Of a stretch of 64,000 bases of DNA, positions 14,605 to 20,931 are shown piece after piece. Where the stretch lies: positions 33,201 through 97,200 of the forward strand of contig QKAF01000027.1 in the NCBI GenBank assembly GCA_003246455.1, given 5' to 3'. The translations under genes and the position numbers were made by a program. Position 1 is the first letter of the stretch. Every line of letters begins with the position of its first letter. This DNA comes from Bacteroidota bacterium. Its GTDB lineage: Bacteria > Bacteroidota > Ignavibacteria > SZUA-365. A model generated the notes under the pieces. It was not told the origin of the DNA. It was given only the letters and a program-made list of their open reading frames with translations, and searched no databases.

Positions 14605-16650
14605 TTATTTCATCACGGTCATCTTCTTCTGGGTGACCTGACCGGCGACGTTGATCTGATAGATGTACGTACCGGAAGGCAGGTTCTCGGAGCTCATGTG
14701 CACCTGATGCGCACCCGCGTCCTTCATTTCGTCGACGAGCGTTCCGACCTGTTCGCCGAGAGCATTGAAGACCTTGAGGGTCACGTGCCCGGCCTGCATC
14801 AGCTGGTAGCTGATGGTCGTCGTCGGATTGAACGGATTCGGGTAGTTCTGGTACAGCGTCACCGCCGTCGGTGCTGCTTCGAAGAACACGTCCACCATCG
14901 GGGAATAGGCAGAGGTGCCGTCGTTGTCGACCTGGCGGAGGCGGTACTTCACGTTGCCCACGTTGCGGTGGGTTTCGGTGATCGCGTCCTTGAAACCGTA
15001 TGTCATCGGTTCGGTGGTGGTCCCGCGACCTTCGACGAAGCCGATCTTTTCCCAGCTGTCGCCGTTGTTGAAGCTGCGCTCGACCTCGAAACCGAAGTTG
15101 TTGGTTTCCATCGTGATGTCCCAGGTCAGGTCCACGTTCTCACCGTTGACGACGGCTTTGAAGGTGGAGAGTTCGACCGGGATGGTACGGCGCGAGCGAT
15201 AGGCCGCGATACCGTTGTTGGACATCAGGACATACAGGATCACGTGCAGACCGGGGAAGTCGGGATCTTCTTCGATCGTGTAGTATTTGAGCTTGTAATC
15301 GACGTCGGAGATATAGTTTTCCTCAGCCGAGTTGTTGTTGAGCGTCTTGTTTCCGAGCTGCGGCGTGGCGCCCCAGAACGCGAAATCCTGGCCCGGCGTG
15401 GTCACGTCAAGGATGCGGGCAGTCGTGTTGTCATTGGGGATCGTGGGGTCGATGCCACCGGTGGGACGGCCGTCTGCCAGCACGAGGAATTTGCGTCCGT
15501 ACTGCGGAAGTTCGAAATACGCCAGGGTGCCGGAGGCGCCTGTGAGCGAAGTCGACAGGGAGCGGTTACCGGTTGCGTTCTGGCTGTAGGTCTGGGGCCA
15601 GCCGGCGTTGAGGTTCTGAATTTCGGATGCGGAGGTGACCAGGCGCGGATTCGAATCCATCCAGACGTCGCTGAACGCCACCGTCGACGTCGCATCGATC
15701 GGTGTCGCGGCAACGCCGTGGGAGGCCAGACCGCTGATCGAGTTGACGAGCCGCACGGCAAGGCGGTATTCGAGTTTTCCGCCGCCGGTGACGTCGCGGT
15801 TGGGACGCTGCGCAGTCGGGCGCAGATCGGCGAGGATTACATCCACTTCGCGGTTCCACTCCGGCTGCGTCGGCCACGAGCCGCCCGAGGCATAAATGCG
15901 TACCGAGTCGACCAGGTACGGAGGATCGGGTGCCGGCGGGGTGTACATTGCGCGCTTGCCGACGACATCAAAGGCATCGCCCCAGCGCGTATAGCTCATT
16001 TCACTGCTGTTGATGTTTCCGACGGCAGTACCGCCCCCATTGAGCGTCGCATATGTCAACATCGGGGTGGCTTTGTCATCGTCCCAGCGCCAGACACGGA
16101 AGGGACCCTGTCCGAGATACACGGGATCGCACTGGCCGCTCGGCAGAAGGATGCAGATACCCCAGACCGGAACAACGAGGTTGCAGGCGAAAATACGGCC
16201 TTCGTCATCAAGATCGATGCGATAGAGGCAATACGTATTCTGCGAATAGCCGCGATTGGTGGTCGTGGGTGTGATCGTATCGATGGGTACGGCGAGCTCG
16301 CCGCCGAGTCCGCGGTTGATGGCGTCGGCGGAACGGCCAACGTTCAGTGCCGGCTGCCCGTTTTCCGCATTCCATGCGTAAATGCGCGGGGTCTGCCAGA
16401 ACGTCGGACCGGAAACAGTCGTGTGCGGGTTGACGATGTACACCACATCCCGCCACTTGTCATAGGCAAGTCCGGTGAACGACTTGCTCGGAATCATCCA
16501 TGCGTTGGGGTGATTCGGTTGCGTCGGGGGAGGGGGGACGTTGCGCCACAGCTCTTCCCAATCGATGTTGCCCTGCGCACTCATCTGCGCGGGCAGCATC
16601 GCCATGAGCAATGCGAGCATGCAGCCAGTAGTCAGTAGAATTTTCCTCAT
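14605..16650 (-). CDS. T9SS C-terminal-sorting-domain secreted protein (681 aa), paralog A.
   Basis: Signal peptide, then a C-terminal ~80-aa domain LYQNYPNPFNPTTTISYQL...GTYIYQINVAGQVTQKKMTVMK (TIGR04183-type). Confidence 0.75.
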   Translation of the reverse strand: MRKILLTTGCMLALLMAMLPAQMSAQGNIDWEELWRNVPPPPTQPNHPNAWMIPSKSFTGLAYDKWRDVVYIVNPHTTVSGPTFWQTPRIYAWNAENGQPALNVGRSADAINRGLGGELAVPIDTITPTTTNRGYSQNTYCLYRIDLDDEGRIFACNLVVPVWGICILLPSGQCDPVYLGQGPFRVWRWDDDKATPMLTYATLNGGGTAVGNINSSEMSYTRWGDAFDVVGKRAMYTPPAPDPPYLVDSVRIYASGGSWPTQPEWNREVDVILADLRPTAQRPNRDVTGGGKLEYRLAVRLVNSISGLASHGVAATPIDATSTVAFSDVWMDSNPRLVTSASEIQNLNAGWPQTYSQNATGNRSLSTSLTGASGTLAYFELPQYGRKFLVLADGRPTGGIDPTIPNDNTTARILDVTTPGQDFAFWGATPQLGNKTLNNNSAEENYISDVDYKLKYYTIEEDPDFPGLHVILYVLMSNNGIAAYRSRRTIPVELSTFKAVVNGENVDLTWDITMETNNFGFEVERSFNNGDSWEKIGFVEGRGTTTEPMTYGFKDAITETHRNVGNVKYRLRQVDNDGTSAYSPMVDVFFEAAPTAVTLYQNYPNPFNPTTTISYQLMQAGHVTLKVFNALGEQVGTLVDEMKDAGAHQVHMSSENLPSGTYIYQINVAGQVTQKKMTVMK

Positions 16651-16951
16651 GGACAGCTCTCCGTACTGGTGAAATATGATGAAGAATCTCTTGACAAATT
16701 GAGTATCAGCGTCACGATTGTAGATTTTGACCTGATCCTAAAACATACCGAAAAGTGCAAGATGAATCAAGGTTGAATCAGCCCATCCAGTTTCGGCGAA
16801 AATGCCGTGTGTTTCGACGTTCACAACAAGAGACACACTGCCCCGGCGAATGTTACAGGAGACCGCGGAATCAGGATTTTTTCCTTTCCTGTCACAATTC
16901 CGCGTGCTGCGGTTCTATTGATGTATCTGATCACATCAACGCGGGGCAGTT

Positions 16952-18997
16952 ATGAACGCATGGTACAGGACCGTCGGGGTTTTCTCCCTTTTAGCGATAT
17001 TTCTGATTCAAAACGCCGCCGCTCAGGGCAACATCGACTGGGAGGAAGCTTGGAAACAGATGCCTCCCTTCGGACCGACGCCGCATCCCATGGCCTGGAT
17101 GAACGATTCCCTGTCCTACACCCGGCTGGCATACGACGAAACGCGCGACGTGCTGTACGTCGTGTCACCGCATCCAGCGGGGGGCGCGGGCTGGAGCGCG
17201 CCGGCAATCCACATCCTGGATCGACAGACCGGCCAACCGAGAATGGATATGGGACGCTCGGCCCATTTCGCGCGGCAGGGGCTGGGAGGAGAACTTCCCG
17301 TGCCGCTCGACACCTTCATCACAGTGAACAATAAAAACCTCGGCTTCGGAGATAACTGGTTCGCTCTCTACAGCATCGATGTGGACGAGGAGGGACGCAT
17401 CTATGCCTGCAATCTGGTCACGCCGGTCTGGGGTATCTGCAACCTTCTGCCCCAGGGCGGCTGCGACCCGATGTATCTCGGACAGGGACCTTTTCGCGTC
17501 TGGCGCTGGGATACCCCCACATCAACACCCGAACTGATCTATGCGACCTGTAACACGTCGCACACCGCGATCGGAAATATCAACTCGAGCGAAATGGCGT
17601 ATGCACGCTGGGGCGACACATTTTCCGTGACCGGGAAACGTGCGTGGTATCACCCCCCGCACGGCGGTCCCCCCGTCCTCGTTGACAGTACGCGCATCTA
17701 CGTGTCGGGGGGAGCCTCACCCGGCTCAGCGAATGGCCGCATCGCTGTCCTTCTCCCGGATGACCGCCCGGCGCCCCTGCGTCCAACACGTGATGTCATG
17801 GGAGGCGGAAACCTGAGTTTCAGGCTTGGTTTGCAGATCAACCTGCCCGCAAACTTTTTCGCCAACGGACTGGCTCCCGATCTGCTCACGGTTTCCGGGG
17901 ACACACTCGAACGGTGGATATGGCTTCAGAAGTACGGGCAAAACGTCATGAAAGTCCGGGAGCGACAGCTTCCCGGCGCACCCCTGCCGCAGACCCTTAC
18001 GCCGGCCGGCGGGGACGTCCTCATATACCCCGGCAGCTCGAGTCTTTTCGGTGCGAGCGGCGCGATGGAATTCATGCATCTCCCTCAATGGCAGCGCAGC
18101 TTCCTTGCGGTTGCCGACGGCCGTCCGACGGGAGGTTCGATTGTGTCGATTGCGAATGACAATACGACCGCACGATTCATAGATGTTACCGACTGGCGGG
18201 CTGCCTTCATGTTCTGGGGAGAGACGCCACAGCTCGGACAGGCGAATCAATGGTCCATCGAGCCGGATAATTATATCAGCGACGTGGATATGACGCTCTT
18301 CTATGACTCGGTGCACCCCGGACCGTACCCCCGGCTGCAGATGTTCGTGCTCATGACGAATAACGGCATTGCCTCATATCGCAGCAGGCCTCAATTTCCC
18401 GTGGAACTGCTGTCGCTCCGTGCACATCGCACGGCATCCGGGGCGGAAATTGAATGGACCGTCGCGGAGGAAGTGAACATCCAGCAGTACCAGGTGGAGC
18501 GGGGCGGGACGGAAAACGGCCCATGGGCGGTGGTCGGGACAGTCGCGGCGCGAGGCGGGACGGGGAACCTCTCGTATGCCATCGATGATGAAAATGCGGA
18601 GTGGAACGCGGGTCCTGCAGGCGACAAGGAACCGAGCGGGGGCATATGGTACCGTCTGACGGCGCTGCAATACGACGGATCGAAGCGGATATTCCCTCCC
18701 GTCATGGTGGAGCACACGGCGCAGCTTCTTCCGCTGCAGTGCGCGCTCTTCCCGCAGCCGGTTTCTTCGCAGGACGGTATGGTCTACCTGCGGCTGCAAT
18801 CGCCCGCAGCGGAGGATGTGTCGCTGCGCGTCGTCGATCTGCTCGGACAGGAAGTGCAGCCTGCACGCCAGTACACCGTCGGGGCAGGACGCACGCTTCT
18901 GCCGCTGCGGATCGGTGATGTTACGTCAGGGATTTATCTGATCGTCCTGAGAACGGGGAGCGGAGCGGTGCGAACGCAGCGCATGATCGTGCGTTAA
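16952..18997 (+). CDS. T9SS-type secreted protein (681 aa), paralog B of 14605..16650, divergently transcribed.
   Basis: Shared blocks QGNIDWEE, GRIxACNLVxPVWGICxLLPxGxCDPxYLGQGPFRVWRWD, INSSEM..RWGD. C-terminal CTD-like beta-sandwich ending LIVLRTGSGAVRTQRMIVR. Confidence 0.7.
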   Translation: MNAWYRTVGVFSLLAIFLIQNAAAQGNIDWEEAWKQMPPFGPTPHPMAWMNDSLSYTRLAYDETRDVLYVVSPHPAGGAGWSAPAIHILDRQTGQPRMDMGRSAHFARQGLGGELPVPLDTFITVNNKNLGFGDNWFALYSIDVDEEGRIYACNLVTPVWGICNLLPQGGCDPMYLGQGPFRVWRWDTPTSTPELIYATCNTSHTAIGNINSSEMAYARWGDTFSVTGKRAWYHPPHGGPPVLVDSTRIYVSGGASPGSANGRIAVLLPDDRPAPLRPTRDVMGGGNLSFRLGLQINLPANFFANGLAPDLLTVSGDTLERWIWLQKYGQNVMKVRERQLPGAPLPQTLTPAGGDVLIYPGSSSLFGASGAMEFMHLPQWQRSFLAVADGRPTGGSIVSIANDNTTARFIDVTDWRAAFMFWGETPQLGQANQWSIEPDNYISDVDMTLFYDSVHPGPYPRLQMFVLMTNNGIASYRSRPQFPVELLSLRAHRTASGAEIEWTVAEEVNIQQYQVERGGTENGPWAVVGTVAARGGTGNLSYAIDDENAEWNAGPAGDKEPSGGIWYRLTALQYDGSKRIFPPVMVEHTAQLLPLQCALFPQPVSSQDGMVYLRLQSPAAEDVSLRVVDLLGQEVQPARQYTVGAGRTLLPLRIGDVTSGIYLIVLRTGSGAVRTQRMIVR

Positions 18998-20931
18998 TCG
19001 ACGACCAGCTGCCGGATCTGCACGTCGCTGCCGCTGACAAGCTGAAGTGTATAGATGCCGCGTGAGAGTGCACGACCGTCAAACTGAATCGTGTGTGTCC
19101 CTGCGGTCAGATCGCCGCTGTGTATCATCGCCACCCGGCGGCCGAGGAGATCGCAGACGCAAAGCGAGGCGCGTAGGTTTCGGCCAGCTTCGAGGCGAAC
19201 GGCCAGCAGACCGTCCCGCTGCGGGGAGTAGGGGTGGGGATAGAGATCCGTCAGAAACACGTCCGGGCGCGGGACAGGGACGTCCTCGACGTTCACCGTG
19301 CGGTAGGAAAGCCGTTTGAGAACGATATTCCGCGGATCGAGGACGATATTCTTCACCTCTGTCGCGGGGATTTCGGGAAACGCGAATTCCTGCATATCGA
19401 CGGCGTCGGTGCTGATGCGCTTCCACAGCGTATCACCGGCATTGCGGATGATGATCAGATCCATCGGCATTCTGAAGAGAGGATACTTCGCCTGATCCTG
19501 CGTCTGGAGCAGGCGGACCCGGAGCGGCGCGCCGCTGTCATCGAGGACGCGCTGCAGCGTGTACTCCGGCCATCCGGCCGCGATCACCCATTCATCAAAG
19601 AACCACGCGAGATCCGCTCCGTGGAATTCTTCCATGACCTGACGGAGCGCACCGGTGGTCGCGTTTCCGTACGCATGGCGCTGGCCGTATGCACGAAGCC
19701 CGTCGAAAAAGTTCGCGTCACCCATGACGTCGCGAAGCATGGCCATCACGGCTCCGCCCTTGTGGTAGATCGTCGACGGGTAATTCGAGGAGGGAGCGGT
19801 TCGCGGGAAATCAAAGAGCGGGAAGACGCCCTCGTTGCGCGCATCGGAAATCCGATAGGTCTGGCCAGTGCTGCGAACGGCTTCGACATACGCGTCCGTT
19901 CCGCCAAGATGCTCGGCATACAGCATTTCGCTGAAAACGGCAAACCCTTCGTTCAGCCACACGTCGCGGAAGTCGGCACAGGTAACCCAGTCACCCCACC
20001 ACATGTGCGAAAGTTCGTGCGCCGCGGTCGTCCCTGCTTCGGAAAGGCCCGAAAACAGCTGCGCCGCGTAGCTGATCATCGTCTGGTGTTCCATCGATCC
20101 GATCGGGGTGATGCAGTACCCGATCTTGTCGAAGGGATACGCGCCGAAACGCTGCGTGAACACATCCATCATGCCGCCGACAGTGGCGAAATACTGCACG
20201 GCGCGCAGGGAATCCGCGCGGGGGACGTAGTACTGCATGGGGATGCCGTTCCACGCATCCTCGACGAGCGCGTAGTCGCTTATTGCGTAGGTGAAGAGAT
20301 AGGTGGCGGTCGGGTGATTCTCCGCCCAGCGCCAGGTGCTTCTGCCGCCGGCGGATGAATGGTCGACCATCAGCCCCGTGCCCGCGACGGTCATTCCGTC
20401 AGGCACGATGAAGGAGACGTCGAAGGTCGCCTTGTCGGCAGGGATGTCGTTTGACGGCAGCCACCGGCGCATCATCGATACGTCGGGATCGGTGAATCCC
20501 ACGCCCATGAAATACGTCACGCTGCCCCAGTGACAGCCGCCCCAGGGGAAGCTGCCGCCCTCGTTCCCGGGTGAACCCGAGTACTGGATCCGGATTTCCG
20601 TTGTGTCTCCCGGAGCGAGCGCCGCGGGGAGATCCACCGTGAGGACGATGCGATCATAGGTGTTGGGCGCAATCATCCCGTACACGAAGCTCTTTACCGT
20701 GGCCGTTTCCATATCAACCAGGTCGAGCGGAATCTGCTGCAGATCGCCGTTCGAAGCGTTGCGTATCGTGAGTGTCGCATCGCCGGTGATGCGATTCTGC
20801 GTGAGGTCGAAGTCGACCTCCGCGCGATAATGCACGACATCGATATCCGGCGACTCGGCGAGAAGCGGAAGGGGGCTCAGGAAAAGAACGAGGAGGATCT
20901 GGAGAATGCGCATGGCTGCAGGACTCTTCAT
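18994..20931 (-). CDS. M1-family zinc aminopeptidase with T9SS C-terminal sorting domain.
   Basis: HELSHMWWGD...NEGFA (HExxH-x18-E gluzincin motif). C-terminal CTD (HTIQFDGRALSRGIYTLQL...). Confidence 0.85.
   Translation of the reverse strand: MKSPAAMRILQILLVLFLSPLPLLAESPDIDVVHYRAEVDFDLTQNRITGDATLTIRNASNGDLQQIPLDLVDMETATVKSFVYGMIAPNTYDRIVLTVDLPAALAPGDTTEIRIQYSGSPGNEGGSFPWGGCHWGSVTYFMGVGFTDPDVSMMRRWLPSNDIPADKATFDVSFIVPDGMTVAGTGLMVDHSSAGGRSTWRWAENHPTATYLFTYAISDYALVEDAWNGIPMQYYVPRADSLRAVQYFATVGGMMDVFTQRFGAYPFDKIGYCITPIGSMEHQTMISYAAQLFSGLSEAGTTAAHELSHMWWGDWVTCADFRDVWLNEGFAVFSEMLYAEHLGGTDAYVEAVRSTGQTYRISDARNEGVFPLFDFPRTAPSSNYPSTIYHKGGAVMAMLRDVMGDANFFDGLRAYGQRHAYGNATTGALRQVMEEFHGADLAWFFDEWVIAAGWPEYTLQRVLDDSGAPLRVRLLQTQDQAKYPLFRMPMDLIIIRNAGDTLWKRISTDAVDMQEFAFPEIPATEVKNIVLDPRNIVLKRLSYRTVNVEDVPVPRPDVFLTDLYPHPYSPQRDGLLAVRLEAGRNLRASLCVCDLLGRRVAMIHSGDLTAGTHTIQFDGRALSRGIYTLQLVSGSDVQIRQLVVD

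Follow-up and report, generated by a model that had tools for sequence, protein, structure and literature searches.

Two genes for T9SS-cargo proteins of identical length, lying head-to-head and with one of them convergent on an M1 aminopeptidase gene, raise the questions of what this protein family does, how such an arrangement arose and whether the peptidase belongs to it. The pair is located within a contig stretch of 64,000 nucleotides (the window), and its features are collected in Table 1. The reading that we favour, and consider reasonably probable, is that paralogs A and B are long-diverged members of a lineage-restricted family of T9SS cargo, in which a propeller domain binds a ligand, and that they became separated by an old duplication and inversion and have promoters of their own.

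Table 1. Coordinates of the paralog pair, its spacer elements and the neighbouring peptidase gene (positions in the window).
Feature	Positions	Strand	Size or sequence	Basis or remark
Paralog A	14605..16650	-	681 aa	ORF call
Paralog A type-A T9SS C-terminal sorting domain (CTD)	14605..14862	-	aa ~597-681, stop codon included	PF18962, TIGR04183
Paralog A propeller domain	15181..16575	-	aa 26-490	alignment A1 (86 members), hhalign, 4ftd match
A/B intergenic spacer	16651..16951	.	301 bp	GC 0.462 (coding sequences 0.60-0.61); separate A-directed and B-directed conserved elements
Candidate sigma-70-like promoter of A	16740..16775	-	CCTTGATT-N17-TATGTTTTA	sequence conservation
Conserved upstream element	16832..16857	-	TGTAACA-N14-GTGTC	~207 nt upstream of A ATG
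B-directed element	16889..16916	+	TGTCACA-N15-GTTCT	~60 nt upstream of B ATG
Paralog B	16952..18997	+	681 aa	ORF call
M1-family zinc aminopeptidase	18994..20931	-	645 aa	signal peptide and sub-threshold CTD-like tail

The ORF calls bear out the coordinates, the divergent orientation and the paired lengths given by the first-pass annotation, as well as its AT-richer intergenic region of about 300 bp. Paralog A consists of a signal peptide (residues 1-25, predicted cleavage between MSA and QGN), a six-bladed beta-propeller (~26-490), a beta-sandwich (~491-596) and a type-A CTD (~597-681), and the corresponding parts of B are residues 1-24 (cleavage between AAA and QGN), ~25-482, ~483-595 and ~596-681. 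BLASTP aligns the two over their full length with 43% identity and 57% positives (E 2e-167, 34 gap positions), and the blocks QGNIDWEE, ACNLVxPVWGIC, LGQGPFRVWRWD and GNINSSEM are found in both, so that the paralogy first noticed from these blocks is real and not coincidental. Identity amounts to 53% in the propeller (61% in its first half, 44% in its second), 29% in the beta-sandwich and 19% in the CTD; B is an old, faster-evolving duplicate whose drift is concentrated in the second propeller half, the stalk and the CTD. The lengths of exactly 681 aa are correct and incidental, as family lengths cluster at 672-690 aa, orthologues of A and B measure 676-685 aa, and 681 aa is found in 6 of the 86 aligned members. 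The same applies to the 4-nt overlap between the stop codons of B and the M1 gene: it is present, as a shared palindrome TTAA at 18994-18997, and it varies among loci (-4 in L009, -14 in L001, and spacers of 70-152 nt in L011, L012, L018 and L025).

Assignment of both proteins to T9SS cargo is upheld by the NCBIfam model TIGR04183 (cutoff 23), which their CTDs exceed with 38.9 bits (E 6e-10) in A and 27.6 bits in B; PF18962 (cutoff 27) is passed by A (38.5 bits, residues 603-679, E 1.5e-9), with B below the cutoff at 22.8 bits. Gln26, directly after the signal peptide, is 98% conserved in the 86-member alignment. From the domains detected, a Sec signal peptide would direct export, and the predicted cleavage would expose this near-invariant N-terminal Gln, as in the Q-rule of Bacteroidetes signal-peptide cleavage (PMC5837995, PMC10653852); the type-A CTD would then carry the proteins over the outer membrane via the T9SS, for release or attachment to the cell surface. 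The neighbouring gene is an M1 peptidase as proposed (PF01433, E 7.6e-30; PF17900, E 2e-8; HELSH-X18-E at residue 305 and GSMEH at residue 278), and its convergence with B is confirmed, whereas its description as CTD-tagged holds only below threshold, with 18.1 (PF18962) and 17.7 bits and 28-32% identity to the CTDs of A and B.

The family was initially regarded as one of unknown function. AlphaFold models of the two proteins are confident (pLDDT 91 and 87). Among Pfam, NCBIfam and PDB sequence models none matches the propeller, and no named enzyme family is matched by the N-terminal ~490 aa. On the other hand, hhalign of A2 against P0150, a protein bearing DUF4623 (PF15416, E 8e-19), gave 98.1% probability (E 1.2e-13, 277 columns), with the motifs GRIFACNL, FRVWRW, RWGDAF, DVDYK and LMSNNGIAAY in common, and a weak direct match to the 4ftd sequence was obtained on the motif GPFRVYRWDTPTSTPE. 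The Pfam DUF4623 model was not reached by any family member tested, even at E<=10. Other distant profile matches (P0145, P0146, P0156 and P0159) carry DUF5018, and P0156 matches DUF4623 and DUF5018 over the same region, indicating that these two Pfam families overlap. The propeller of A and B is a remote, loop-expanded homologue of the DUF4623/DUF5018 six-bladed propellers; the family can be placed in this way, and the superfamily itself is uncharacterised.

In the 86-member alignment, W51, M52, D64, N157, P161, P196, G224, D248, T429, P430 and N479 of the propeller are invariant, and D146, D148, E150, E217, D225, D393, D449 and D451 nearly so. Judged from strand and loop topology only, the conserved residues would cluster on the top face of the propeller. 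It had been suggested that the motifs CxxxPxWGIC and CDPxYLGQGPF mark a catalytic or binding site, and a cysteine-based catalytic site appears unlikely: 25 of 86 members have G, S, T, A or N in place of C156, with N157 and P161 of the same block invariant, while C166 and C174 co-occur in 76 of 76 cases and disappear jointly when their loop is missing, a pattern typical of a structural disulfide. The FRVWRW segment of the motif is also found in DUF4623 proteins. Distant DUF4623/DUF5018 relatives are accessory domains of multi-domain T9SS cargos, beside CHB_HEX_C_1, Fn3_assoc, LTD, Ig and Amidase_2, and literature on these proteins yielded no experiment or characterised homologue for any of them. 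Domain association, together with the absence of obvious catalytic residues, suggests that the propeller is most likely a surface ligand-binding module rather than an enzyme. As the working part of the protein, it would bind a glycan, a cell-wall polymer or another macromolecule, held away from the CTD by the ~100-aa beta-sandwich stalk. Its conserved surface is assigned to the long loops of blades 1-3 (residues ~95-235), a region under equal constraint in A and B.

A rather unlikely alternative is that the propellers are secreted enzymes of the six-bladed 'calcium-dependent phosphotriesterase-like' kind, acting as Ca2+-dependent hydrolases or lyases (phytase, lactonase/SGL, PON or PAL type), with a catalytic metal coordinated by the invariant Asp/Asn cluster where the central tunnel opens. 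The invariant D64, N157, D248 and N479 and the near-invariant acidic residues listed above are consistent with such a site, the DxDxEG loop at 146-151 resembles Ca2+-binding DxDxDG loops, and the long top-face loops are very strongly conserved, to the same degree in A and B. However, SGL, phytase, PAL and strictosidine-synthase families were unmatched in 16 members even at E<=10, and a PAL-type 3-His zinc site is excluded because only one His (H311, 86%) is conserved. The homologous propeller of distant relatives accompanies the real catalytic domains as an accessory module, and several 'invariant' residues would, according to DSSP, occupy NHL-like structural positions at the ends of B strands.

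It is also quite unlikely that the propeller proteins cooperate with the M1 aminopeptidase, for instance by capturing or presenting extracellular peptides or proteins for N-terminal trimming at the cell surface. Both partners are secreted and carry or resemble T9SS CTDs, and in about 20 loci the M1 gene directly precedes a family member or, as here, is convergent with it, down to 46% M1 and 30% propeller identity. Nevertheless, a whole 8-gene block including an ABC2 permease, a LolA-like protein, a 2-hydroxyacid dehydrogenase and serC is equally syntenic, and M1 adjacency may therefore be inherited synteny and not functional coupling. A conserved promoter region belonging to the propeller gene follows directly on the M1 stop, and the two genes therefore do not form an operon; many additional paralogues are far from any M1 gene (L004, L005, L020-L022, L035-L040), and in the window B is antisense to M1. 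It is very improbable that A and B, possibly joined by other paralogues, co-assemble into a hetero-oligomeric coat or surface layer. TfsA and TfsB of Tannerella forsythia are reportedly paired T9SS-secreted S-layer proteins, and a comparable role would be consistent with the conserved gene pair, the multiple paralogues in every genome with their common conserved propeller half, the type-A CTDs of both proteins, and the strong, highly conserved sigma-70-like candidate promoter and ribosome-binding site of A. Against it, many lineages have a single copy at the locus, and the size and fold of A and B are unlike those of known S-layer proteins.

With regard to the origin of the pair, the family is small: 1.84 billion representatives contain about 40 clusters of it at 50% identity, with 38 representatives at E<1e-30, and all 39 genomic loci, with 2-4 copies per genome, belong to uncultured Bacteroidota/Ignavibacteria-type MAGs, whose taxon labels are coarse and in some cases evidently wrong (Chromatiales). 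In rooted trees, which are neighbour-joining only, A and B form sister clades with many orthologues each, (A+A2)+(B+B2) having 96% and B+B2 100% bootstrap support. The inverted layout of B is kept in at least 8 MAGs, in other lineages the same syntenic site, downstream of this M1 peptidase, is occupied by 1-3 co-directional copies, and DNA-level similarity between A and B goes no further than coding-level conservation, with 146 nt at 77% as the longest inverted match. Taken together, these data make an old duplication, probably tandem, followed by inversion of the copy adjoining M1, the simplest history. As synteny and phylogeny show, the ancestral locus ran co-directionally from ABC2 permease through LolA-like protein, M1 peptidase and propeller to 2-hydroxyacid dehydrogenase; the propeller gene was duplicated in the ancestor of the window's clade, and its M1-adjoining copy (B) came to be inverted, an arrangement since kept.

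The spacer contains elements for each gene separately. The candidate promoter of A is followed by a leader of ~95 nt that ends in the conserved ribosome-binding region CTTCATCATATTTCACCAGTACGGAGAG, and conserved RNA structure was looked for in this leader and not found. The 32-nt degenerate pattern of the promoter candidate has exact matches at 12 loci, among them L016, where no inverted B is present; GGTATGTTTT has a single occurrence in the window, with 0.02 expected, and TTGACA-N17-19-TAnnTT variants stand at the same place in L007 and L033. TGTAACA-N14-GTGTC, matched once in the window against 0.01 expected, precedes A-type genes by 190-212 nt in 19 loci, among them some without inverted B and both tandem copies of L019; it may be a putative ECF-sigma-like promoter, given its -35/-10 shape (GTAAC-N17-GTC), or a regulator binding site. 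From this distribution, the A-directed elements are older than the arrival or inversion of B. Upstream of B, 8 of the 10 inverted-B spacers that were aligned retain TTGTGACA, and 8 loci with an inverted B carry TGTCACA-N11-17-GTNYC on the B strand, as against 0 loci without inverted B; the strict pattern does not cover the copy in the window, whose end is GTTCT. We tentatively regard this element as a candidate B promoter or regulatory site, built in the same way as its counterpart upstream of A. Each gene would be transcribed from its own putative promoter region within the spacer. A recent local inverted duplication with equal lengths, one bidirectional promoter and a catalytic cysteine site, a reading that goes back to the first-pass suggestion of an inverted duplication and has in its favour the head-to-head genes around an AT-richer spacer, their identical lengths and the inverted DNA match of 146 nt, is extremely unlikely, since 'recent' and 'shared promoter' are refuted by synteny, tree and A elements in loci without B, and the protein divergence, the disulfide-like cysteines and the family's length mode speak against it.

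Among known systems, Ca2+-dependent six-bladed propeller enzymes (Bacillus phytase 1poo, PAL 3fw0, PON1, SGL-type lactonases and DFPase) share with the family a richness in conserved, possibly Ca2+-binding Asp/Asn; A and B match none of their sequence families and have no 3-His site, and as matches these enzymes are placed no higher than propellers without enzymatic activity. NHL-repeat six-bladed propellers (Brat 1q7f, Mei-P26, TRIM71 and the PknD sensor domain 1rwi) are non-catalytic binding modules whose consensus the blade motifs 'xYD..rDvvYVvNp', 'GRIFAcNLV' and 'VLMSNNGIAAY' appear to resemble; an NHL Pfam match was not found in the family, identity is 10-15%, and A and B have much longer loops and the context of secreted T9SS cargo. 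DUF5018 (PF16410) is known from surface proteins with propellers in Bacteroidota and Firmicutes. It accompanies other domains as an accessory part of carbohydrate-active multi-domain proteins (PMC12109409; PMC10076258), is also present in a large pectinesterase/PL9 protein (PMC12109409), and is linked to A and B by short, partial distant profile matches (E 1e-14 to 1e-3), without a direct Pfam match. DUF4623 (PF15416), of which the Bacteroides eggerthii protein BACEGG_03550 (PDB 4ftd) is a solved example, likewise consists of secreted or surface proteins of Bacteroidota that often bear a T9SS CTD, and has GxIFACNL, FxVYxW(D/E)TPxSxP, RxGDxF, D(V/I)D(Y/F)K and NNGIAAY in common with A and B, although sequence identity is 13-16%. 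Long conserved loop insertions, for example at 95-143, at 157-184 (the latter with the disulfide) and in blades 4-5, account for a propeller of ~465 aa against ~280 aligned DUF4623 core positions, and the A/B family, unlike DUF4623, has a fixed architecture of single propeller, stalk and CTD and is found in one uncultured lineage only. In conclusion, A and B are not a new kind of system; they form a branch, not recognised before, of DUF4623, a domain family that is catalogued and uncharacterised.

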